Assembly (NCBI GenBank): GCA_900556975.1
Contig: USQZ01000003.1
Span: 5,310-69,309 of the forward strand
Length of the DNA: 64,000 bases
Direction: 5' to 3'
DNA from: an uncultured Clostridium sp.
GTDB taxonomy: Bacteria; Bacillota; Clostridia; TANB77; CAG-508
Both the position numbers and the translations under genes were made by a program. The notes below the pieces were generated by a model. That model was not told the DNA's origin, did not search any database, and worked only from the letters and a program-made list of their open reading frames with translations. Shown piece after piece: positions 30,711-50,800 of this stretch. How positions within the stretch are numbered: the stretch's first letter is position 1; every line of letters starts with the position of its first letter.

Positions 30711-30810
30711 GGACAAAAGCGGACTGTTTATAACATTTGCACTGATTATAACATTTTTAAGTTCGCATCTTTGTTCGCGCACGAAATTTGCAAAGCAAAT
30801 TTCTATGCAT
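30711..30810. repeat. intergenic two-hairpin repeat, family A, copy 2
   Basis: ggacaaaagcggac...gttcgcatctttgttc hairpin followed by gcacgaaatttgc-aaa-gcaaatttctatgc. See copies at 2661 and 51815. Confidence 0.75.
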
Positions 30811-40922: not shown

Positions 40923-42113
40923 TTGTCTAGTAAACTTTGTATTATATCTGAATATAATCCTTTTCATTTTGGTCATTTGTATCATTTAAATGAATCTATT
41001 TCCCAGACGAATGCCGATTTTAAAGTTGCAATTATTTCTGGGAACTTTGTTCAACGTGGTGAACCTAGTATAATAAATAAATGGGAAAAGGCTAAAGTTG
41101 CGTTGTCCACTGGATTTGACTTGGTTGTTGAATTACCTACTTTATATGCAATTTCAAGTGCTGAAAACTTTGCTAATGGTTCGGTTAAAATTGCCAATCA
41201 GATTGGTAGTGATTATATTTCTTTTGGAACTGAGTCTGGTGATTTGAAAAAATTAAAAGATTTGTCTTCTCTTATTAATAAAAACGAAAAAGAATATATC
41301 GCAAATGTTAAAGAAAAAATTGCTGAAGGCTTTTCATATCCAAAATCTCAGGAACTTGTAATTGATAAAATGTTCGGAGATGAATTCTTAGGTGTTTGCA
41401 AACCTAATAATATTTTAGGACTCGAATATTTGAAGTCATTAAATGCTATTTCATCAAAGATTATCCCTATTACCGTTAAACGTGATTTTGAAAAATCATC
41501 TTCCTCAGATGTTCGTGCTCTGCTTAGAACTTCTGGATTTAAAATTGAAAATTTAAAAGATAAGATTCCTGATTTTTCTTATGAAATTTTGGCTGAAAAT
41601 ATTGATAATGGAAATGCTGTTTTGTCTTTAAAAGCTTTTGAAAAAGAAATTATATATATTTTAAGAACTATTGATAATGAGAAATTAAAGAATATTCCTG
41701 ATGTTCCTGAAAATATGCTTTCTAATTTGAAAAAAGTTGCTTGTTCTACTAACTCTTTAGATGAGTTAATTACTACTTTGAAAAATAAAAGCATTACTCA
41801 AGCAAGAATTCAAAGAATTTTGTTATATATTTTACTTGGAATCACTAAATCTGATATGGAATTGTCAAAAAGAATTACTCCTTATGTTAGAGTTCTTGGT
41901 ATGAGTGAGAATGGGAAAAAGATTCTTTCTGATATCTCTAAAGATATTAATGTTATTACTTCTGTTAAGACATTTGAGAAAAATTGTGATGATTCTGATT
42001 TCCTTAGAATGTTGGAGATTGATAAAAAAGCAACTGATATTTATACATTAGCGTACTCAAAAAATTCTGTTGCAAATCTTGACTATACAATGAGAATTCA
42101 AACTAATTCTTAA
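40923..42113 (+). CDS. tmcAL: tRNA(Met) cytidine acetate ligase (YlbM/UPF0348 nucleotidyltransferase)
   Basis: IISEYNPFHFGHLYHL motif. TTG 40923 lies 7 nt after GAGAGGAG; the track starts at an upstream TTG 40887. Confidence 0.75.
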   Translation: MSSKLCIISEYNPFHFGHLYHLNESISQTNADFKVAIISGNFVQRGEPSIINKWEKAKVALSTGFDLVVELPTLYAISSAENFANGSVKIANQIGSDYISFGTESGDLKKLKDLSSLINKNEKEYIANVKEKIAEGFSYPKSQELVIDKMFGDEFLGVCKPNNILGLEYLKSLNAISSKIIPITVKRDFEKSSSSDVRALLRTSGFKIENLKDKIPDFSYEILAENIDNGNAVLSLKAFEKEIIYILRTIDNEKLKNIPDVPENMLSNLKKVACSTNSLDELITTLKNKSITQARIQRILLYILLGITKSDMELSKRITPYVRVLGMSENGKKILSDISKDINVITSVKTFEKNCDDSDFLRMLEIDKKATDIYTLAYSKNSVANLDYTMRIQTNS

Positions 42114-42176
42114 ATTAATATGATTAAATAAACAAAAACACTTTGATTTAGCAAATATAAATATAGTACAGAAAAA

Positions 42177-42330
42177 GTTCATATAAACTTCCCTCACACC
42201 TTGCTGTCGCATTCCTCGGAATTTGAAAATAAAAAATTACCATTTTTATTTTCAAACCGGGTAGAATGCTTCAATCGAACTCACTTCGTTCGTTTGGTCC
42301 CTGCGCGGTGATTCGAAATTTTATATGAAC
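42177..42330. repeat. structured intergenic repeat, family B, copy 1
   Basis: Conserved arms CTCACACCTTGCTGTCGCA and TGCTTCAATCG.A..CACTTCGTT..TTTGGTC.CTG.GCGGTGATTC.AAA, a copy-specific central hairpin, and a copy-specific 11-bp flanking inverted repeat gttcatataaa / tttatatgaac. Confidence 0.8.
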
Positions 42331-42384
42331 CTTCTTCTTTTCTATTATAAATACAATTTCAAAAGCTAAATCAAGTGCTTTTGT

Positions 42385-43242
42385 TTATTTTAATACTATT
42401 TCTTTTTTGTTTAAATATTCTAATGCTCCGGAATCCGTTGCAAAATCAAATTTCATTTTATAATTTTCAAGCATCTGATATTTGCATTTGAATTTCTTGT
42501 TTATTTCGTTTATTCCGTATTTTCCGTCTCCTAAAATTGGATGACCTATATGTGCTAAATGAGCTCGTATTTGATGAGTTCGTCCCGTAATAAGCTCAAC
42601 ATCTAGTACTGATGTATTGCTTTTTTTATCTTCTGATAAAACTTTGTATTTTGTTAGTATTTCCATGTACCCCTTTTTAGGAGTGTCTGATATGTAGACT
42701 AATGATTTTTTATTATCTTTAAAAAGATATGCTTTTAGCAAAGCTTCTTTTTTATTTAAAATTCCGATTACTGTACATCTATAGTTTTTCTTTATCTCTT
42801 TGTTTTTGAATTTTGAAAGCAAAATTTCTAATGCTTCTGGATTTTTTGCAAATAAAACTAATCCTGTTGTGTTTCTATCAATTCTATGACATGGACTTAT
42901 ATATGTATATTTTTTGTTTAATATTTTTGTCAATGAGTCTGCAGTTGGTTCGTCTGTAACTACTTCTAGTTCTGCAGGTTTATTTACAACTAAAATATTT
43001 TCATCCTCAAATATTGTCTTAATGTTATAATTTTTATATAGCAATTCATCTACAATAAATATTGTTATTGTGTCAAATTCATGGACAATTTTATCTTCAT
43101 TTACTCTAACATCATTTATTCTTATATCTTTTTTTCTTAATGTTTTGTAGAATGTTGATGATGTTAAACCATTGAAGTGTGCATACATAAATGTGCTTAA
43201 TTTTTTGTTATTAAATTTGGGTTCTACAATTAGTTTTTGCAT
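42385..43242 (-). CDS. RluA-family pseudouridine synthase with S4-like N-terminus (RluD-like)
   Basis: HRIDRNTTGL and GRTHQIRAHL motifs. ATG 43242 follows GGAGGA; the track start is 43269. Confidence 0.85.
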   Translation of the reverse strand: MQKLIVEPKFNNKKLSTFMYAHFNGLTSSTFYKTLRKKDIRINDVRVNEDKIVHEFDTITIFIVDELLYKNYNIKTIFEDENILVVNKPAELEVVTDEPTADSLTKILNKKYTYISPCHRIDRNTTGLVLFAKNPEALEILLSKFKNKEIKKNYRCTVIGILNKKEALLKAYLFKDNKKSLVYISDTPKKGYMEILTKYKVLSEDKKSNTSVLDVELITGRTHQIRAHLAHIGHPILGDGKYGINEINKKFKCKYQMLENYKMKFDFATDSGALEYLNKKEIVLK

Positions 43243-43258
43243 GTTTCCTCCATTTTTA

Positions 43259-43807
43259 TTATTTTTCAAATATACTTAATATTTTTGCCACAGCATAAAT
43301 AATGTTTGTACATTTAGTTTTTGCAAAGTTTTTTCCTAAAGCCTTACCACCTACTGTAATTGAGGCAACAAGTGCACTCATTATGAATTGGATGTCAAAG
43401 CTCAATCCTATGCTTTGTGTAATTTTTACTGTTAACATGGCACTTATCGCACCACTAAGTACACCGCATATATCACCGATAACGTCATTACATATATTAG
43501 AAACTTTTGGCGCTGATCTAATTAATTTTATGGCTGTTTTTGCACCTTTTACTTTCTTTGACGCCATTGCGTGGAACTCTTCTTCTGTTGCACAAGTTAT
43601 GGCAACACCAACAATATCAAATACTACACCAATTAATATAACGATGATAAGTACGATTAAAGCTGGTAATGTTGCTAATCCATTTATACTTGTTGTTGAT
43701 ATGTATGAGAATGTCATTGACAATATAAATGTTACTATAAATATTGTGAAGAACCATTTAATAGCTTCGTTTTTCGGGTTCTTGTTTTTTTCGTTCTTTT
43801 TCTTCAT
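43259..43807 (-). CDS. oapA: small four-TM protein with DxxxD in TM3; candidate OLE-associated protein A
   Basis: 182 aa (about 20 kDa) with four hydrophobic segments. NDVIGD places Asp108 and Asp112 within TM3. Lies immediately downstream of the ncRNA candidate and has its own promoter. Confidence 0.5.
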   Translation of the reverse strand: MKKKNEKNKNPKNEAIKWFFTIFIVTFILSMTFSYISTTSINGLATLPALIVLIIVILIGVVFDIVGVAITCATEEEFHAMASKKVKGAKTAIKLIRSAPKVSNICNDVIGDICGVLSGAISAMLTVKITQSIGLSFDIQFIMSALVASITVGGKALGKNFAKTKCTNIIYAVAKILSIFEK

Positions 43808-43840
43808 TTCTTTTCCTCTCTTTGGTTCGTCTTTTCTTGC

Positions 43841-43869
43841 ATTTTAGCATAACAATTTTTGTATGTCAA
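43841..43869 (-). promoter_or_regulatory. sigma-A-type promoter for the oapA-like gene
   Basis: Minus strand reads TTGACA (43869-43864), 17-nt spacer, TAAAAT (43846-43841). Confidence 0.6.
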
Positions 43870-43904
43870 AATGCAATTTAAAACTTTTCATATTACTTGA
43901 TATA

Positions 43905-44547
43905 GAAAAAAGAATTTATATAAAACAGACACTTTCATCTGATTGTATAAATTCTTCACTATAATTATTATCGAATTAAAGATGGTAGAAATTTAAGTAA
44001 ATTTTACGGTATAAGGTCTAGCAGAATTTCTCTACTTTTTACTAAGCATTACTGCTTAGCTGTTTCCATTTAAAAAAGCATCCCTTAAAAGTTTCGGGCA
44101 GCTAGATCGCCACTAAAATCCGTACCTTAATCCCTAAATTTCCAAGCTTCTCGATTGAAACGAACATTCTAGAAGTTTTCCTTAATGTACTTGATCTATT
44201 ATTAGTTTCTTTTGCAATAATGATTTCATAGCCTTTCAAGAGAAAACGTGGCCGCGTCTTTTCATGAAATAATGACTAATCCCAAGATTACCACTCAAAA
44301 CAGATTTATCGCATACAATTCGATATGTACACTCAAAATAGATTATATCACAACAAGTAGAACTGGTGATAACGAATATAGGAATCCAAATATATGCCGT
44401 TATATTCTATCCTAAATTCTTTACTTCCCATACCCACGCAAAACTGGCATTTTGCGCATGACATAAGAAACTTTATCTAATAAATCATGTGTGGATTTTT
44501 AGCCCCACCTTCATAATAGATAGTACAACTAGAATAATGCACCATCG
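43905..44547 (-). ncRNA. large structured ncRNA candidate of about 640 nt, most consistent with OLE RNA
   Basis: No ORF of 60 aa or more on either strand across 43850-44770. A sample line has about 40% G+C against about 25% in the flanks. Bounded by a near-consensus promoter and a hairpin plus T6 (gaatttata...tataaattc TTTTTT). Followed by the four-TM DxxxD gene. Confidence 0.55.
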
Positions 44548-44553
44548 AGTTTT

Positions 44554-44582
44554 ATTATACCAGAATCCAAAAGTAAAGACAA
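44554..44582 (-). promoter_or_regulatory. sigma-A-type extended -10 promoter for the ncRNA candidate
   Basis: Minus strand reads TTGTCT (44582-44577), 17-nt spacer ending in TGG, then TATAAT (44559-44554). Confidence 0.6.
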
Positions 44583-44850
44583 ATTTGAAATTGAAACTTT
44601 TTTAATAGTTTTAATCAAATTTGTCTTGAAAGATTAATCTTGTTTTTATTTTTTACCATTATTTCTCGTTTTTTCTTAAATTTTCTTTATTTTTCTTTTC
44701 TTTTTATTTCTTGATTTTGTTTTTGCTTTTTGTTTTAATTTATATTTTTTAATTTAGTTTATTTAATATCCGTTGTTGTATCGTTCTTTTTTCTTTTTAT
44801 ATCTAAACAAGTGTCAGCATTTTTATTGTTGTGCTGGCACTTTTTGTATA

Positions 44851-47451
44851 TTATTTTTTCTTAGTTGTTTTAGCTTTAGTTGTAGTTTCTTTAGATTTTG
44901 TTTTTTTAGTTTCCTTTTTTGTCTCTTTATTCTCTTCAGCTTTATTTTCTTTTTCAGCAGTTTCTTTTTCTTTCTTTTCTGCTTTCTTATCTTTTTCTTC
45001 AGCTACTACTTTTTCTTTCTTTTCTGTTTTTTTATCTTTTTCTTCAGCTACTGTTTTTTCTTCTACTTTATCTTTTATTTCTTTAACGTCAGCTGCCTCT
45101 TCATGCTTTTCCTCTGGCACTTGAATTTTCTCCTCAATTATCTTCTCAGTTTCTTCTGGCTTTTGACCTTTTAAATATACATCATATTCTTCAATATAAA
45201 TTGTTAAAATACGTGGATATAGTGTTTCTGGTATATTAAAGTATCTGTTAGTTTTCATCTTTTCTTTTTTAACTAATTCATATTCAAACATATCAGCATC
45301 AATTATAACTTTTGATGTAACATCCATTCCATTTGGTAATGTATTATTTGTATTATCATAATATGTTGCATTAGTTAAGAAAACAGCTGGATAGCCTTCT
45401 TTAAAATTAAGTTTAAACAATTTAACTGCTGTTTCGAATTTGTTGTCATATGATTCAATTTCTCTTTCAGCGTTTATATTGAAAACACTAAAATCTGTTT
45501 TATGTAATTTTTCATTTATAGATCCAACTTTGTATATTGGCATATCATAATCAAATTTAATTTTATGCATTGCTTCATTTAATGAACTTGTCATTAGTTG
45601 TAATTTCTCTGTAAAATCAAATATATCAATTTTTTTGTTTATATTCAAAATTTGAAACTTGTCTTTTTCATTTTCTCTATGTGACTTGTTATTTAAGTAT
45701 TTAACCTGAGTTGGGTCATCTCTCATTGAACCAAATATATCAAAATCGACTTTAGAACTTAATGTTGAATTTGAACTTGTGAAATACTCGCTTTTTAAAC
45801 TTCTTAGTTGCTCTTCTATTACGTCTTTATCCATATCACCATTTTTCAACATATTAATTATTGGTAATACATTTGTACTAGCTACATAAATACTATCTAA
45901 TTCTTGCTTTGAAAATTTTGTTCTTTGCAACTTATCATATGCTATTCCTAAATCTTCAAAATCATATTCATAATCGAATTTTTTCTTTATTTTTTGAGCA
46001 TCACCATCATATATATCATCACCCGTATCAAGTTCTAACAATTCATCTTTATTAGCAAACTTCCAGAAATCAAATAAACTCTTTTTGTGTTTATCTATTT
46101 CTTGAATATACAATGTGGCATTTTCAATTTTCTTTTTAGTATTTAATATTTTTAGTTCCATTGCTTTTATGTCTTGAGTTAAATCTTTTACATATCTCTC
46201 ACTTTTTTCATATAAAGCTTGAACTGTTACTAAATCATCAATTGTATGATATTTTTTATCATCAGTATATCCTTGAATTGGTTTAGGTTCTTTTGTTTCT
46301 TCTTTCTTTTCAACTTCTTCAATTTCTTCTTTAGCCTTATTTTTCTTTTTAGAGAAGAAATATTTAACTTTACCGAAGAATGTTTTCTTACATTCTAAGT
46401 ATGTAGAAATTTCTTTTTGCTTAATGAAATATTCTGCTTCTTCTTTTTTTAGCTCAGCTTTCAAATCTTTTAATTTATTTTCTAATTTAAAAGATTTTTG
46501 ATTAAATTTCTTAATCTCAGCCTCTGTTTCAATATATTTTTCTTTTATGAATTCTGGCAAATCTCCATAAGTAATCTTTTTGCCTTCATAGAAAAATTCT
46601 ATACTATTTTTTTCATTAATCTGAGTAGTAAAATTATATCTGCTTCCAAGTTCTGTTTGTAAAATAAATAATGCTTTTATTAACTTATAAAATTCGTCAG
46701 CTTCCTCTTTGCTCCTTAAAATTATTTTATACATTGTTTTTAAGCTGTCATAAATTGGTGTCTCTCCAACAATTTGAATAGTCAATTTATCATCTAAATC
46801 GTGTACTTCATATGTTAAAGACCAATTTTTTGTGAATACCCATAAATAATTTTCAATATCATTTATTTCTTTATTGCTTAAGTATTGTTCACTATAATTT
46901 ACATATGAAATAGGTACAAAAATCTTTTCATTTTTATCTTTTTGCTCTGCTTCAATTTTCTTTCTTAATAAATAGAATAACTCATCAAATGTATCTTCTT
47001 TTAAAGATACTAACATGAAATATCTATCTGTATCTGCAGAATAGTATATTTGCCATAATTGATTTTTAGGATAATGTACTGTAAATGGTATTTTGTCTGC
47101 CATTTTACTTTGCTCTAGTGCTACTCTTTTTATGCTTATATCAGAAATTCTTTCAAAAACATTTAATAGTTCTGCTGATTTTTCACTATCATGTTCACTT
47201 TCTTCAATAAACCTTCCTAATGGCATTGATTTTGAATATTTTTCTTTTATTGGATCATCTCTATGTGCTGTTGTGCAGTAAATTTCTATATCCTTTATTG
47301 GTACATATTTGTATACTTTTAATTCTTTATCGTTATTTAATCTTGAAGGATTAAATATTATAGGTTTAGTTTCAGTTAAAAAAGTTGGTAAGTTTTCTAA
47401 ATCTAATCCTAGTACATTCAATTTTTCTTTTATATCTTCTTTAGTAGCCAA
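44851..47451 (-). CDS. hypothetical 866-aa protein with K/E-rich repetitive C-terminal tail
   Basis: TTG start at 47451, 8 nt after GAGGAGG. The long ORF carries no recognised catalytic motif. The last roughly 110 aa are K/E/T-rich. Confidence 0.6.
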   Translation of the reverse strand: MATKEDIKEKLNVLGLDLENLPTFLTETKPIIFNPSRLNNDKELKVYKYVPIKDIEIYCTTAHRDDPIKEKYSKSMPLGRFIEESEHDSEKSAELLNVFERISDISIKRVALEQSKMADKIPFTVHYPKNQLWQIYYSADTDRYFMLVSLKEDTFDELFYLLRKKIEAEQKDKNEKIFVPISYVNYSEQYLSNKEINDIENYLWVFTKNWSLTYEVHDLDDKLTIQIVGETPIYDSLKTMYKIILRSKEEADEFYKLIKALFILQTELGSRYNFTTQINEKNSIEFFYEGKKITYGDLPEFIKEKYIETEAEIKKFNQKSFKLENKLKDLKAELKKEEAEYFIKQKEISTYLECKKTFFGKVKYFFSKKKNKAKEEIEEVEKKEETKEPKPIQGYTDDKKYHTIDDLVTVQALYEKSERYVKDLTQDIKAMELKILNTKKKIENATLYIQEIDKHKKSLFDFWKFANKDELLELDTGDDIYDGDAQKIKKKFDYEYDFEDLGIAYDKLQRTKFSKQELDSIYVASTNVLPIINMLKNGDMDKDVIEEQLRSLKSEYFTSSNSTLSSKVDFDIFGSMRDDPTQVKYLNNKSHRENEKDKFQILNINKKIDIFDFTEKLQLMTSSLNEAMHKIKFDYDMPIYKVGSINEKLHKTDFSVFNINAEREIESYDNKFETAVKLFKLNFKEGYPAVFLTNATYYDNTNNTLPNGMDVTSKVIIDADMFEYELVKKEKMKTNRYFNIPETLYPRILTIYIEEYDVYLKGQKPEETEKIIEEKIQVPEEKHEEAADVKEIKDKVEEKTVAEEKDKKTEKKEKVVAEEKDKKAEKKEKETAEKENKAEENKETKKETKKTKSKETTTKAKTTKKK
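44968..45057 (-). repeat. in-frame 45-nt tandem repeat (2 units) inside the K/E-rich tail
   Basis: ttctttcttttctg(c/t)...atctttttcttcagctact occurs twice with a 45-nt period. It encodes (V/T)VAEEKDKK(A/T)EKKEK twice. Confidence 0.8.
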
Positions 47452-47691
47452 TTTGTTTTCCTCCTCGTCACATTTGAGCCTAGTATATCATAATATAAAT
47501 TAATTTCCAAGTAATACTCATATTTTTTTCACATTTTTTCACTATTGTACATTCAACAAAAATCAGAATATAATTCATATAACTATTTTGACTAATTCTT
47601 CTTCAAGTTTTTATATTCTGACATAAATTCATGTATTTTTCTAGATTAGATTTTATTCCTAGAATCTTTTATTTTAAACTCTAAAAGCGTA

Positions 47692-47739
47692 AAAAAGTAC
47701 GTTATCAGTATACTTGATATACTTAATAACATACTTTTT
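47692..47739 (-). terminator. imperfect AT-rich hairpin after thrS
   Basis: aaaaagtacgttatcagtata / tatacttaataacatacttttt, with one mismatch and one bulge. A/T runs form part of the arms. Confidence 0.4.
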
Positions 47740-47760
47740 AATCATGTATTACAATTGTAA

Positions 47761-49521
47761 TTACATAGCTTTTTCTTCAATTTCTTTTGAAATCATAGAA
47801 ACAAAATCTTCTATTGACATTTGACCAATGTCTCCTTCTTTTCTCTTTCTTACTCCAACTGCGTTTGCTTCTACTTCTTTTTCTCCTAAAATTAGCATGT
47901 ATGGAACTTTTTGTAATTGAGCTTCTCTAATTTTATATCCGATTTTTTCTTGTCTTGCATCTAATTCAACTCTTATTCCTTTTTCCTCAAGAATTGCTTT
48001 TATTTTTTCTGCATATTCTTTTTGGTTATCAGATATTGGTAAGATTGAAACTTGAACTGGTGATAACCATACTGGAAATGCTCCAGCAAAGTGTTCTGTT
48101 ATAATTCCTATAAATCTTTCGAAAGATCCGAATATTGCTCTATGAACTAATATTGGCGTTTTCTTTTCTCCGTTTGAGTCTATATATGAAAGGTTAAATC
48201 TAAGTGGTAATTGGAAGTCAACTTGAATTGTTCCCATTTGCCATTCTCTTCCTAAGCAATCTTTCATTTTTATATCAATTTTTGGACCATAGAAAGCTCC
48301 GTCACCTTCGTTTATTCTGTAGTTATCTTTTCCGCAAAGTTCATCTAATACTGATTTTAAGTTAGCTTCTGCTTTATTCCATAATTCGATGTCTCCCATA
48401 TAGTCGTCTGGTCTTGTTGAAAGTGTTAGTTCGAAATCTAATCCAAATATTCCATATAGGTGTTTTGCTATTTCGATTATATCTTTGATTTCTGCACCAA
48501 TTTGATCTTCTGTTATGAAGTTATGTGCATCATCTTGTCTGAACATTCTTACTCTGAATAAGCCATTTAATTGTCCTGATTTTTCATTTCTGTGAATTAC
48601 ATCAATATCGTTAAAACGCATTGGTAAATCCTTATAGCTTCTTAATTTTGAATCAAATATTTTAATTGCATTTGGACAGTTCATTGGTTTTAATGCTTGT
48701 TCTTTTCCATCAGAATCTGTTAAAACAAACATATCTTCTTTATAGTGATCCCAATGTCCTGATATTTTCCAAAGTTCACTACTATTTAATTGTGGACCAG
48801 AGAATTCCATGTATCCTCTTTTTTCATGTTCTTTTCTCCAGAAGTCTATTAAAACGTTCATCATTTTAAATCCTTTTGGCATCCAATATGCCATTCCTGG
48901 AGCTGTTTCATCAAAGAAGAATAATTCTAATTCTTTTCCTAATTTTCTATGATCTCTTTTTTTAGCTTCTTCTATCATATTTAAATATTCATCAAGTTCA
49001 CTTGCTTTTGGGAATGAAATTCCGTAAATTCTTTGTAGCATTTTGTTGTGTTCGTCACCTCTCCAATATGCTCCTGATGATGATAATAGTTTTATTGCTT
49101 TTACACATCCTGTTGATGGTAAATGTGGGCCTCTACATAGGTCTGTGAATTCTCCTTGTTTGTAGAATGAAATTACTTCACCTTCTGGTAGTTCTTTGAT
49201 TAGCTCTACTTTGTAAGGTTCTTCTCTTTCTTCCATAAGCTTTATAGCTTCTTCTCTTGGAAGTTCAAATCTTTCAATTGGTAAATCTTCTTTGATTATC
49301 TTTTTCATTTCTTCTTCAATTGCAGATAAATCTTCTTCTGTAAAAGGTTTTTCTACATCAAAGTCATAGTAAAATCCTTTTTCAATTGATGGACCAATTG
49401 TTAGTTTTGCATCTGGGAATAATCTCTTGATGGCTTGTGCCATGATATGAGAAGTCGTGTGCCAATACATTGATTCCTCTACTTCTTGAGTTCTTCCTCC
49501 GCCAAGTTTAATTTTAAACAT
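47761..49521 (-). CDS. thrS: threonine--tRNA ligase (N-terminal TGS domain largely absent)
   Basis: HTTSHIMAQA editing-domain motif, class II core (FRVRMFRQDDAH, GAFYGPKID), anticodon-binding C-terminus, and a Thr T-box leader upstream. Confidence 0.95.
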   Translation of the reverse strand: MFKIKLGGGRTQEVEESMYWHTTSHIMAQAIKRLFPDAKLTIGPSIEKGFYYDFDVEKPFTEEDLSAIEEEMKKIIKEDLPIERFELPREEAIKLMEEREEPYKVELIKELPEGEVISFYKQGEFTDLCRGPHLPSTGCVKAIKLLSSSGAYWRGDEHNKMLQRIYGISFPKASELDEYLNMIEEAKKRDHRKLGKELELFFFDETAPGMAYWMPKGFKMMNVLIDFWRKEHEKRGYMEFSGPQLNSSELWKISGHWDHYKEDMFVLTDSDGKEQALKPMNCPNAIKIFDSKLRSYKDLPMRFNDIDVIHRNEKSGQLNGLFRVRMFRQDDAHNFITEDQIGAEIKDIIEIAKHLYGIFGLDFELTLSTRPDDYMGDIELWNKAEANLKSVLDELCGKDNYRINEGDGAFYGPKIDIKMKDCLGREWQMGTIQVDFQLPLRFNLSYIDSNGEKKTPILVHRAIFGSFERFIGIITEHFAGAFPVWLSPVQVSILPISDNQKEYAEKIKAILEEKGIRVELDARQEKIGYKIREAQLQKVPYMLILGEKEVEANAVGVRKRKEGDIGQMSIEDFVSMISKEIEEKAM

Positions 49522-49614
49522 ATAAATTCCTCCTTTACCTATCTTTTGATAGGCTAAACAAAATTTATTTGAAGCCTTACTTATAGAGGTTTTTGCATAT
49601 TAAATGTTTATAAT

Positions 49615-49843
49615 ATAACAAAAACCCCTATAAGCCTTTTAGACTTATAGGGGTAAGTTTATTTTCTTACGGTTCCACCCTAATATTTAACTTGTTTACC
49701 GTTTTAACGCAACTTCTACGCTTTTCTTTCGAAAAGAAACTCCGGGGTAGTTTTTCAAAATCGTTTGTTAAGATTAGCTTTCAGCCGGTGACTAATCATC
49801 TCTTTTAATAACCTTATTTTTACTTTGTCCCATCACTGTTTAC
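49615..49843 (-). promoter_or_regulatory. T-box leader (Thr specifier) of thrS
   Basis: The minus strand shows an AGAGA box (aaaagagatg), GCTGAAAGC, the specifier region gaaaaACUACCccgg (ACU/ACC are both Thr), the T-box sequence attaGGGTGGAACCGtaag, and the terminator ccctataagtct...ggcttatagggg + TTTTTG. Confidence 0.85.
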
Positions 49844-49849
49844 ATTTGT

Positions 49850-49878
49850 ATTTTACTACTTTATTCCAGTTATGTCAA
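49850..49878 (-). promoter_or_regulatory. sigma-A-type promoter for the thrS leader
   Basis: Minus strand reads TTGACA (49878-49873), 17-nt spacer, TAAAAT (49855-49850). Confidence 0.6.
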
Positions 49879-49902
49879 TTGTTTTTTAGAATTCCAGTCA
49901 AA

Positions 49903-50043
49903 AAGTATTATTAATATTTTCTCACACCTTGCTGTCGCAATCTTTTTGAGCCTTCGGCTCTTTTTATTGTAAAGATTGCTTCAATCGCAGTCACTTCGTT
50001 TCTTTGGTCGCTGTGCGGTGATTCAAAAACCATTATAATACTT
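49903..50043. repeat. structured intergenic repeat, family B, copy 2
   Basis: Same conserved arms as 42177-42330. Central hairpin gcaatcttt-[gagccttcggctc]-aaagattgc. Copy-specific flanking inverted repeat aagtattattaat / attataatactt. Confidence 0.8.
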
Positions 50044-50098
50044 TCTTGAGACATCTAACTTATCTTATTTACTCTAAAAATGTGCCATTCGCTAATAT

Positions 50099-50800
50099 TT
50101 ACCTTTGATATAATTGTTCTAGTTCTAATGTTGTTAATTCTCTGATTCTTCCTGGTGTTAAATCTTTAGGTAACTTTAGGTTTCCCATTTGGGTTCTATG
50201 GAGTTTTGTAACTTTGGCACCGTAGCATCCGAACATTCTCTTAATTTGGTGATATCTTCCTTCTGTTAATGTGACTTCTGCTGTGTATTTACCTGTTATT
50301 ATCATTTCTGAGCTTTTGCATTTTCCGTCTATTAGTTCTATTCCTTCTTTAAATCCTTTTTTCATTTCTTCTGTTACAGGAATGTCTATTGTTACTTCGT
50401 ATTTTTTTGATACGTGTTTTTTAGGTGCTAGTATGTTATGGGCAAATTTTCCGTCATCTGTTATTATCATTAAACCTGTTGTGTTTTTGTCTAGTCTTCC
50501 TGCTGGAAATAGTTCTCTTTTTTGATATTCTTGTGGAACTAGTTCTAATACTGTTTTATCTTTATTGTCTTTTGTTGCTGAGATATATCCTTCTGGCTTA
50601 TTTAGTATTAAATATATGTTGTCTTTTATAGTTATTGGATTATCATCTATTTTTATTTCTGATGAATATTTATCAATTTTTATGTCAGATTTCAATACTA
50701 TTTTGCCATCTACCTTTACTCTTTTTTGTTGTATAAGTTTTTTTACATCACTTCTCGAATAGTTCCCTTGTGATGATATTATTTTATCAATTCTTTCCAT
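50099..50800 (-). CDS. RsuA/RluB-family pseudouridine synthase with S4 domain
   Basis: GRLDKNTTGLMI and GRYHQIKRMF motifs, with an N-terminal S4-like segment. Confidence 0.85.
   Translation of the reverse strand: MERIDKIISSQGNYSRSDVKKLIQQKRVKVDGKIVLKSDIKIDKYSSEIKIDDNPITIKDNIYLILNKPEGYISATKDNKDKTVLELVPQEYQKRELFPAGRLDKNTTGLMIITDDGKFAHNILAPKKHVSKKYEVTIDIPVTEEMKKGFKEGIELIDGKCKSSEMIITGKYTAEVTLTEGRYHQIKRMFGCYGAKVTKLHRTQMGNLKLPKDLTPGRIRELTTLELEQLYQR

Follow-up and report, generated by a model that had tools for sequence, protein, structure and literature searches.

The window, i.e., the whole stretch of 64,000 nt that was analysed, contains two copies of a structured repeat that we term Family B. 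The features of both copies are compiled in Table 1, where + denotes the strand that gives the best fold of the core. Copy 1 is matched by our nhmmer profile with positions 6-173 (C3:47479-47644 in the source genome, which corresponds to 42170-42335 of the window). Both copies neighbour genes that encode PseudoU_synth_2 proteins (RluA-type at copy 1, RsuA-type at copy 2), as had been read before. Two further RNA features are located nearby. A full-length OLE (ornate large extremophilic) RNA is encoded on the - strand 1.6 kb from copy 1 (43966-44561; 249.5 bits); this RNA is abundant in gut metatranscriptome contigs (~200x, run X2). A T-box leader (49646-49845, - strand) reaches 73 bits, which is below the Rfam gathering score of 93; it lies upstream of a threonyl-tRNA synthetase gene (47761-49521, - strand) and is accompanied by a near-consensus promoter (49878-49850). 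The OLE RNA and the sub-threshold T-box are the only Rfam matches nearby. Over the element itself, Rfam, with its self-cleaving ribozymes and IS605-orfB motifs, provides nothing at the gathering score, nor at E-values up to 10 across 41800-50400.

A first-pass annotation had described the two loci as a two-copy family with conserved arms. Its sequence readings hold: the left arm CTCACACCTTGCTGTCGCA is identical at both loci (42193-42211, 49921-49939), the right arms are similar (85.7% identity over 56 nt), the central hairpins of the two copies differ from each other, and the 11-bp perfect inverted repeat gttcatataaa (42177-42187) / tttatatgaac (42320-42330) is present. The extent assigned to copy 1 was too short, since the element spans about 42166-42340. 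The family is also far larger than two copies, i.e., the nhmmer profile search identifies ~57 loci in the source genome, and relatives are found in other genera.

Table 1. Features of the Family B copies and of the adjacent outer inverted repeat (window coordinates).
Feature	Position	Strand	Basis
Family B copy 1, whole element (arms and core)	42166..42340	+	family alignment, consensus, nhmmer
Copy 1 left arm; pairs with 42315-42338	42170..42192	+	sequence reading, consensus
P2 5' strand CACCTTGCTG; partner 42301-42310 (CTGCGCGGTG)	42197..42206	+	compensatory changes
P3 central hairpin, closing stem GCATTC ... GAATGC, AT-rich apex	42209..42269	+	
P4 side hairpin ATCGAAC / GTTTGGT, loop TCACTTCGTTC	42274..42298	+	
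P2 3' strand and junction CTGCGCGGTGATTC	42301..42314	+	
Copy 1 right arm: gaaattttatatgaac and weaker outer pairing	42315..42338	+	
Further outer inverted repeat aaacaaaaacactttgatttagc; pairs with 42360-42385	42124..42150	.	sequence reading
Partner of the outer inverted repeat, gctaaatcaagtgcttttgttt	42360..42385	.	sequence reading and run X1
Family B copy 2, arms aaaaagtattattaatatttt / aaaaaccattataatacttt	49900..50044	+	nhmmer match C3:55209-55339

Anatomy and copies of the Family B repeat

The source genome (G000) is a 94-contig MAG of 1.74 Mb with an estimated contamination of 6%. We counted copies with BLAST and with a profile trained on full-length copies. This results in 74 nhmmer matches with E-values down to 1e-50, which represent ~57 distinct loci (range ~50-60). 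About 20 of the matches sit at contig ends; that is, Family B breaks the assembly of its host genome.

The repeat unit measures ~180 nt, with a 178-nt consensus derived from 28 aligned full copies. AT-rich inverted arms of 19-39 bp enclose an asymmetric core. In consensus order, the left arm AAAGAAAAATACATAT.AAAATTTTTT is followed by the core, i.e., TCACACCTTGCTGTCGCA, an AT-rich central hairpin and TGCTTCAATCGAACTCACTTCGTTCGTTTGGTCCCTGCGCGGTGATTC, and by the right arm AAAAATTTT.ATATGTATTTTTCTTT. About 30 copies have identical 25-bp arms, with AAAGAAAAATACATAT.AAAATTTTT / AAAAATTTT.ATATGTATTTTTCTTT as their common terminal inverted repeats. Within the arms, the inner half follows the family consensus, while the outer half varies by copy yet remains complementary (e.g., C23:16350, C66:3533, C22:3600, C21:1487). 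The left arm of copy 1 combines a private outer part (gttcatat), which recurs in its G006 and G014 orthologues, with the inner consensus ataaa. The repeat flanking copy 1, formerly taken for unrelated sequence, is therefore private in its outer ~10 bp only; its inner part (ATAT.AAAATTTTTT / AAAAATTTT.ATAT) belongs to the consensus. On either side of the core stands AAAATTTT, simultaneously an inverted and a direct repeat, so that a precise loss of the core is easy.

The central hairpin P3 had been considered specific to each copy. Instead, its type follows the subfamily: copy 1 shows the AT hairpin of the family majority, and copy 2 is part of a diverged subfamily with the GC-rich P3 hairpin gagccttcggctc, most members of which have an extra hairpin in P4. 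The GC hairpin recurs, among others, at C22:3600 and at locus L044 of G014. The P3 apex accepts palindromic inserts (up to ~170 nt elsewhere in the family). The central hairpin of the copy 1 orthologue in G006 hosts a member of another repeat, which we call family X.

Family X is a second palindromic repeat of ~125 nt with ~45 copies in G000 (e.g., C5:22500-22625, C2:38891-39010, C6:31041-31164), none of which is in the contig of the window. It has Family B-like arms and a core with GACGCGCAG ... AAACGAAGTTTAG ... AGCAAGG; on its other strand, the motifs CCTTGCT, CTTCGTT and CTGCGCG are in common with Family B, whose copies it often adjoins. Family X is distinct from the repeat labelled Family A in the first-pass annotation (…gcggactgtttataacatttgcactgattataacattttta…; 30711-30810 in the window). 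The latter is also found inside the Family B copy at C13:14025-14249, where it is inserted in reverse orientation into the central hairpin. That is, the small repeats of G000 nest in one another. Beside several Family B copies we observe the recurrent small hairpin TGTCA(T/C)(G/A)GGGA(C/T)GT(C/T)CTTTTTGACA (in G000 at C56:~6735, C18:~170, C6:~20290 and C21:~1740; also in the arms of L144), and many central hairpins carry the related palindrome tgtcaat…attgaca as an additional insert at their tip. Furthermore, a 474-aa ThyX-like ORF (C2:39294-40718; RHR…S motif read by eye) lies between two Family B copies, and two copies at the same spacing are also present in G006 and G018.

Fold and covariation of the core

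Both strands fold as a long arm-closed stem with a three-way junction of P2, P3 and P4. We evaluated this fold on 53 non-redundant copies for a structure composed of P1 (the arms), P2 (CACC.UGC.G with C.GCG.GGUG), P3 and P4 (AUCGAAC with GUUUGGU). Within the genus, 93.7% of the cells are paired, and 14 pairs with 76 cells are changed on both sides; none of 500 shuffles matches these values, and slid controls provide only ~7 cells. Across genera, 12 pairs are changed on both sides, which again is not matched by any of 500 shuffles. For P2, two-sided changes are found in 4 pairs within the genus and in 4 across genera, with CACC/GGUG, CAUC/GAUG, UACC/GGUA, CCCC/GGGG and CGCC/GGCG as compensatory variants. 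P4 is closed by a C-G pair (32 copies), by G-C (17) or by U-A (3). Covariation thus supports the core fold both within the genus and across genera. Of the structured RNA with covarying helices that had been proposed as one of two readings of the locus, the helices stand, i.e., the closing helix, P2, P3 and P4 are compensated. Its description as a two-copy RNA does not: the element is a dispersed repeat of ~57 loci in both orientations, and the (unstranded) metatranscriptome contigs provide no element-specific transcript.

Three wobble pairs as well as the U·C and U·U mismatches of P2 are retained rather than repaired; P2 of copy 1 contains both conserved mismatches and a U·G wobble. The U·G and G·U wobbles are invariant or almost so on the + strand, and they are pairs on the + strand only. 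Within the arms, no G·U strand bias is observed (both strands counted). The junction strands are nearly invariant across genera. The asymmetric branch, the covariation, the fixed wobbles and mismatches and the near-invariant junction speak for selection that acts on how the single + strand folds. The conservation of the junction across genera, including its fixed mismatches, exceeds what a selfish repeat needs; a host function would also fit.

Distribution, context and turnover of copies

An exact-pattern scan of 185,579 species genomes only results in matches within uncultured gut Clostridia MAGs (human Hadza, UMGS1672, rabbit, sheep) and in a handful of matches within unrelated MAGs (Chloroflexia, Thermomicrobia/Thermomicrobiales, Ottowia), which we take to be chance. 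Based on DNA similarity, Family B is present in 8 of the 21 genomes of the genus, with high copy number in 3. The covariance model yields full-length matches of 60-92 bits in 24/151 genomes of the order. These represent 11 of its 29 sampled genera, mostly from the same family, while 0 of ~290 genomes from other Clostridia families outside the order are matched. The number of copies per positive genome is at least 20 in several genomes and one in others. Copies from other genera have long arms (up to 57 bp) that are perfect and private, and the AAAATTTT repeat is missing from the copies with perfect arms of 45-57 bp. Given a source MAG in 94 contigs with 6% estimated contamination, one could suspect chance similarity or misassembly. 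This is hardly conceivable: Family B recurs in MAGs obtained independently from the gut of human, rabbit, sheep and pig, the repeat is present at orthologous loci in three species, and its E-values are as low as 1e-50.

All copies are intergenic, occur in either orientation and are mainly found just 3' of genes. We investigated the context of the 78 loci (orthologues included) for which both neighbours are called. Here, 41% are located between convergent genes compared to 9% in the background of intergenic regions, and copies between divergent genes are rare (2.6% vs. 10% in the background). Codirectional contexts (n=44) split into 25 sense and 19 antisense copies. No conserved partner gene emerged among the neighbours of Family B copies, including the single-copy elements of other genera, which adjoin unrelated genes (accA/fabI, sigma factor, FtsX-type). 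The placement of both window copies next to pseudouridine synthase genes, to which the first-pass annotation had drawn attention, is a coincidence. In metatranscriptome contigs, the element is joined to its flanks and to the RluA gene (run X10) with mRNA-like depth, and these unstranded contigs give no sign of an abundant discrete element RNA. When screening Family B for a promoter or terminator of its own, only weak AT-rich consensus matches are found.

For orthologous sites, we searched the flanks of sister-species elements in G000 and vice versa. The sites fall into four states, i.e., occupied, empty, reduced to one arm, or occupied by an inverted core. Where both species are occupied, the orientation is the same at 13/14 sites. 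Clean empty sites, at which both arms and core are absent, are observed for C22:19278 (in G006), C31:19404 (in G018 and G014) and C13:14750 (in G006, with G018 occupied). The insert at C22:19278 is flanked by the 7-bp direct repeat TATTTTA; the other empty sites are ambiguous in this respect within AT-rich DNA. At C4:37871 and C5:57955, species at a greater distance lack the element and show ordinary terminator hairpins instead. A one-arm site is given by C6:20324 of G000 when compared to L059 of G018. The locus of copy 2 is occupied in G006 and shows only one arm or hairpin in G014. Furthermore, G000 contains two bare palindromes of family arms without core (C20:8168, C40:15357). Such hairpin-only sites carry arm sequence derived from the element, and they look like loss products. 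Solo arms are not common footprints, since arm-like 15-mers (2 mismatches) are found at about chance level (71 vs. 56 per Mb).

Inversions are observed as well. At the RluA locus (copy 1), the core of G000 is flipped relative to G006 and G014 within the same private arm, and the orthologous arms differ by compensated changes. The core of C13:14031 is inverted relative to G006. In a relative from pig gut (run X1), the segment between 42124-42150 and 42360-42385 is flipped, and the joint 42143/42375 connects opposite strands. Whole units of arms and core are thus present or absent between sister species, where most sites can be read as gain or precise loss alike, and units can invert between their arms or lose the core, leaving one arm or a bare hairpin.

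Interpretation and relation to known elements

We screened for a mobilising enzyme and for known element classes. In G000, no multi-copy transposase-like ORF is found; its multi-copy CDS are giant repetitive proteins of 1,000-4,500 aa, presumably surface proteins (C18:218-13615, C47:956-12028, C39:2-10201 and others), and a few paralogues. No parent IS with matching ends was found, i.e., there are neither Family B halves separated by an ORF nor autonomous copies in the MAGs, which often lose IS elements, so that the absence of a transposase is weak evidence. An IS630-type parent, as suggested by a possible TA target, was rejected given that PF13358 (DDE_3) is absent in 28/28 genomes tested. 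The same applies to a REP/RAYT system: PF01797 (Y1/RAYT) is absent from the high-copy genomes G000, G006 and G018 and, where present in the genus, does not track Family B. A phage origin is rejected, with no match in 50,697 phage records or in IMG/VR contigs, as is an integron attC site, since copies are scattered across almost all contigs next to housekeeping genes, with neither cassette array nor integrase. A literature search revealed no paper on repeats of this lineage.

Several known systems resemble Family B in part. REPINs are REP doublets that form hairpins and owe their mobility to RAYT transposases encoded in single copy (Bertels and Rainey 2011, PMC3116915; PMC3337134). Like Family B, they are intergenic, non-coding, ~100-180 nt long imperfect hairpins in both orientations, which are inherited within a lineage in tens to hundreds of copies and show conserved unpaired positions within the hairpin. 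In contrast to REPINs, the high-copy genomes of Family B are without a Y1/RAYT gene, a GTAG/REP-type head is missing, and the arms are AT-rich and private per copy. The core is a three-way junction, i.e., an asymmetric arrangement of P2, P3 and P4 and not two inverted REP units with a head tetranucleotide. Membership among the REPINs thus fails, given that neither a RAYT (in the high-copy genomes) nor a REP doublet was found.

Structured bacterial MITEs include bcr1 of the Bacillus cereus group, Correia of Neisseria and ERIC of enterobacteria. Family B shares with them terminal inverted repeats, a length of 100-200 nt, intergenic sites close to the ends of genes, strain-variable presence, internal indel variants and compensatory changes that preserve the hairpin. 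It differs in that neither a matching parent IS nor a clear fixed-length target duplication was found, by outer repeats that are private yet complementary (45-57 bp in other genera), and by a junction conserved across genera. Membership is therefore incomplete: no parent IS was found, and the target duplication, 7 bp at one site, is ambiguous at the others. Integron attC sites and the subterminal hairpins of IS200/IS605, both folded ssDNA substrates, are likewise imperfect palindromes in which mismatches or extrahelical bases mark one strand and in which the stem structure is more conserved than the sequence; long attC tips can branch. Here, Family B differs by its symmetric arms and the lack of cassette arrays, of an R/L box consensus and of an adjacent integrase or TnpA. 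Finally, Family B has in common with invertons that related genomes show both orientations of a segment flanked by inverted repeats. However, inverton repeats are conserved recombinase sites with a promoter inside, whereas the repeats of Family B are private, its interior is conserved, and its inversion is rare (2 of ~12 loci between species).

Altogether, we consider Family B likely to be a lineage-specific, non-autonomous, palindromic and structured mobile DNA repeat of MITE/REPIN-like type, the mobilising enzyme of which was not found. Such an element would move as arms and core together, with copies being tolerated, or preferentially landing, at the 3' ends of genes, and copies would be lost again by recombination between the element's own repeats. 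We take the conserved junction, in which wobbles and mismatches are fixed, to be the putative recognition module of a trans-acting mobilising protein; it may act as folded ssDNA or as RNA. Arm-to-arm intramolecular conversion, i.e., template switching in the quasi-palindrome or recombination, would best explain how the arms stay complementary and why orthologous arms differ by compensated changes. It could push the repeat outward into the flanking DNA, making the outer arms private, and would also yield inversions. On the RNA level, any role of the long hairpin between A-tract and U-tract as a 3' stem or terminator is probably incidental.

The main rival is a host RNA function of the core. Family B would then be a functional structured RNA family, e.g., a protein-binding 3'-UTR module, a processing/stability element or an sRNA, which spread through the genome by copying, whose fold is maintained by selection at the RNA level and for which mobility is secondary or historical. 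Both the covariation of P2, P3 and P4 and the one-strand wobbles and mismatches, within the genus and across genera, are in accordance with this, as are the junction strands that are near-invariant across genera, the position of copies 3' of genes and the metatranscriptome contigs that join the element to its flanks and the RluA gene. Yet 19 of the 44 codirectional copies are antisense to their flanking genes, such that read-through would often make the wrong strand. Neither a conserved promoter nor a conserved terminator was found at Family B, the element's depth is mRNA-like compared to ~200x for the OLE RNA, copies are gained and lost between sister species, and no Rfam family matches. We thus regard a primary RNA function as rather unlikely.

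The other earlier reading, a miniature mobile element inserting into the loop of terminator hairpins, holds in outline. Presence and absence differ between sister species, copies are enriched at 3' ends and between convergent genes, and one-arm or hairpin-only sites exist; insertion into a pre-existing hairpin loop is not the best fit. In its strict form, only the core would be mobile and insert into the apex of pre-existing AT palindromes, thereby duplicating the target AAAATTTT, and the arms would be hairpins of the host. The core is indeed flanked by AAAATTTT(T) as inverted and direct repeat, bare palindromes exist, the outer arms are private to each copy, gene 3' ends are strongly enriched, and, at C4:37871 and C5:57955, the sister species have a terminator hairpin whose stem ends resemble the outer arms. 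Against this stand the three clean empty sites, which are without arm or palindrome, and the ~30 copies with the same 25-bp arms compared to just 2 bare palindromes with these arms in G000. One-arm sites retain inner arm sequence of the element type, perfect arms of 45-57 bp far exceed terminators and belong to copies without AAAATTTT, and compensated differences between orthologous arms are left unexplained by insertion into a fixed hairpin. That is, insertion into terminator loops accounts for some sites but explains neither the clean empty sites nor the 45-57-bp arms, and mobility of the core alone appears quite improbable.

Most of what is known about repeats like REP/REPIN, ERIC, Correia and bcr1 comes from Proteobacteria and from a handful of cultured Firmicutes, and for most small palindromic repeats it is still a matter of debate which enzyme mobilises them or what the fold does. 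Family B is real, lineage-specific and not found in Rfam or literature searches. Its hosts are small (1.1-2.0 Mb), IS-poor genomes from an uncultured family of gut Clostridia, in which Family B and its sister family together reach ~100 copies per genome and break MAG assemblies. This makes it a clean case for asking by what means such repeats persist, which factor recognises them and what keeps the private arms perfect. The covariance model can be used to mask the repeats in RNA-discovery scans, to explain contig breaks and as a strain marker. The core may also serve, as folded ssDNA or RNA, as substrate or guide for a structure-specific mobilisation system that is particular to this lineage, has not been described before and uses a RAYT-like single-copy host enzyme, or may itself be catalytic. 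We deem this unlikely; if true, the core would stand for a new class of replicators that persist in Firmicutes by vertical inheritance.
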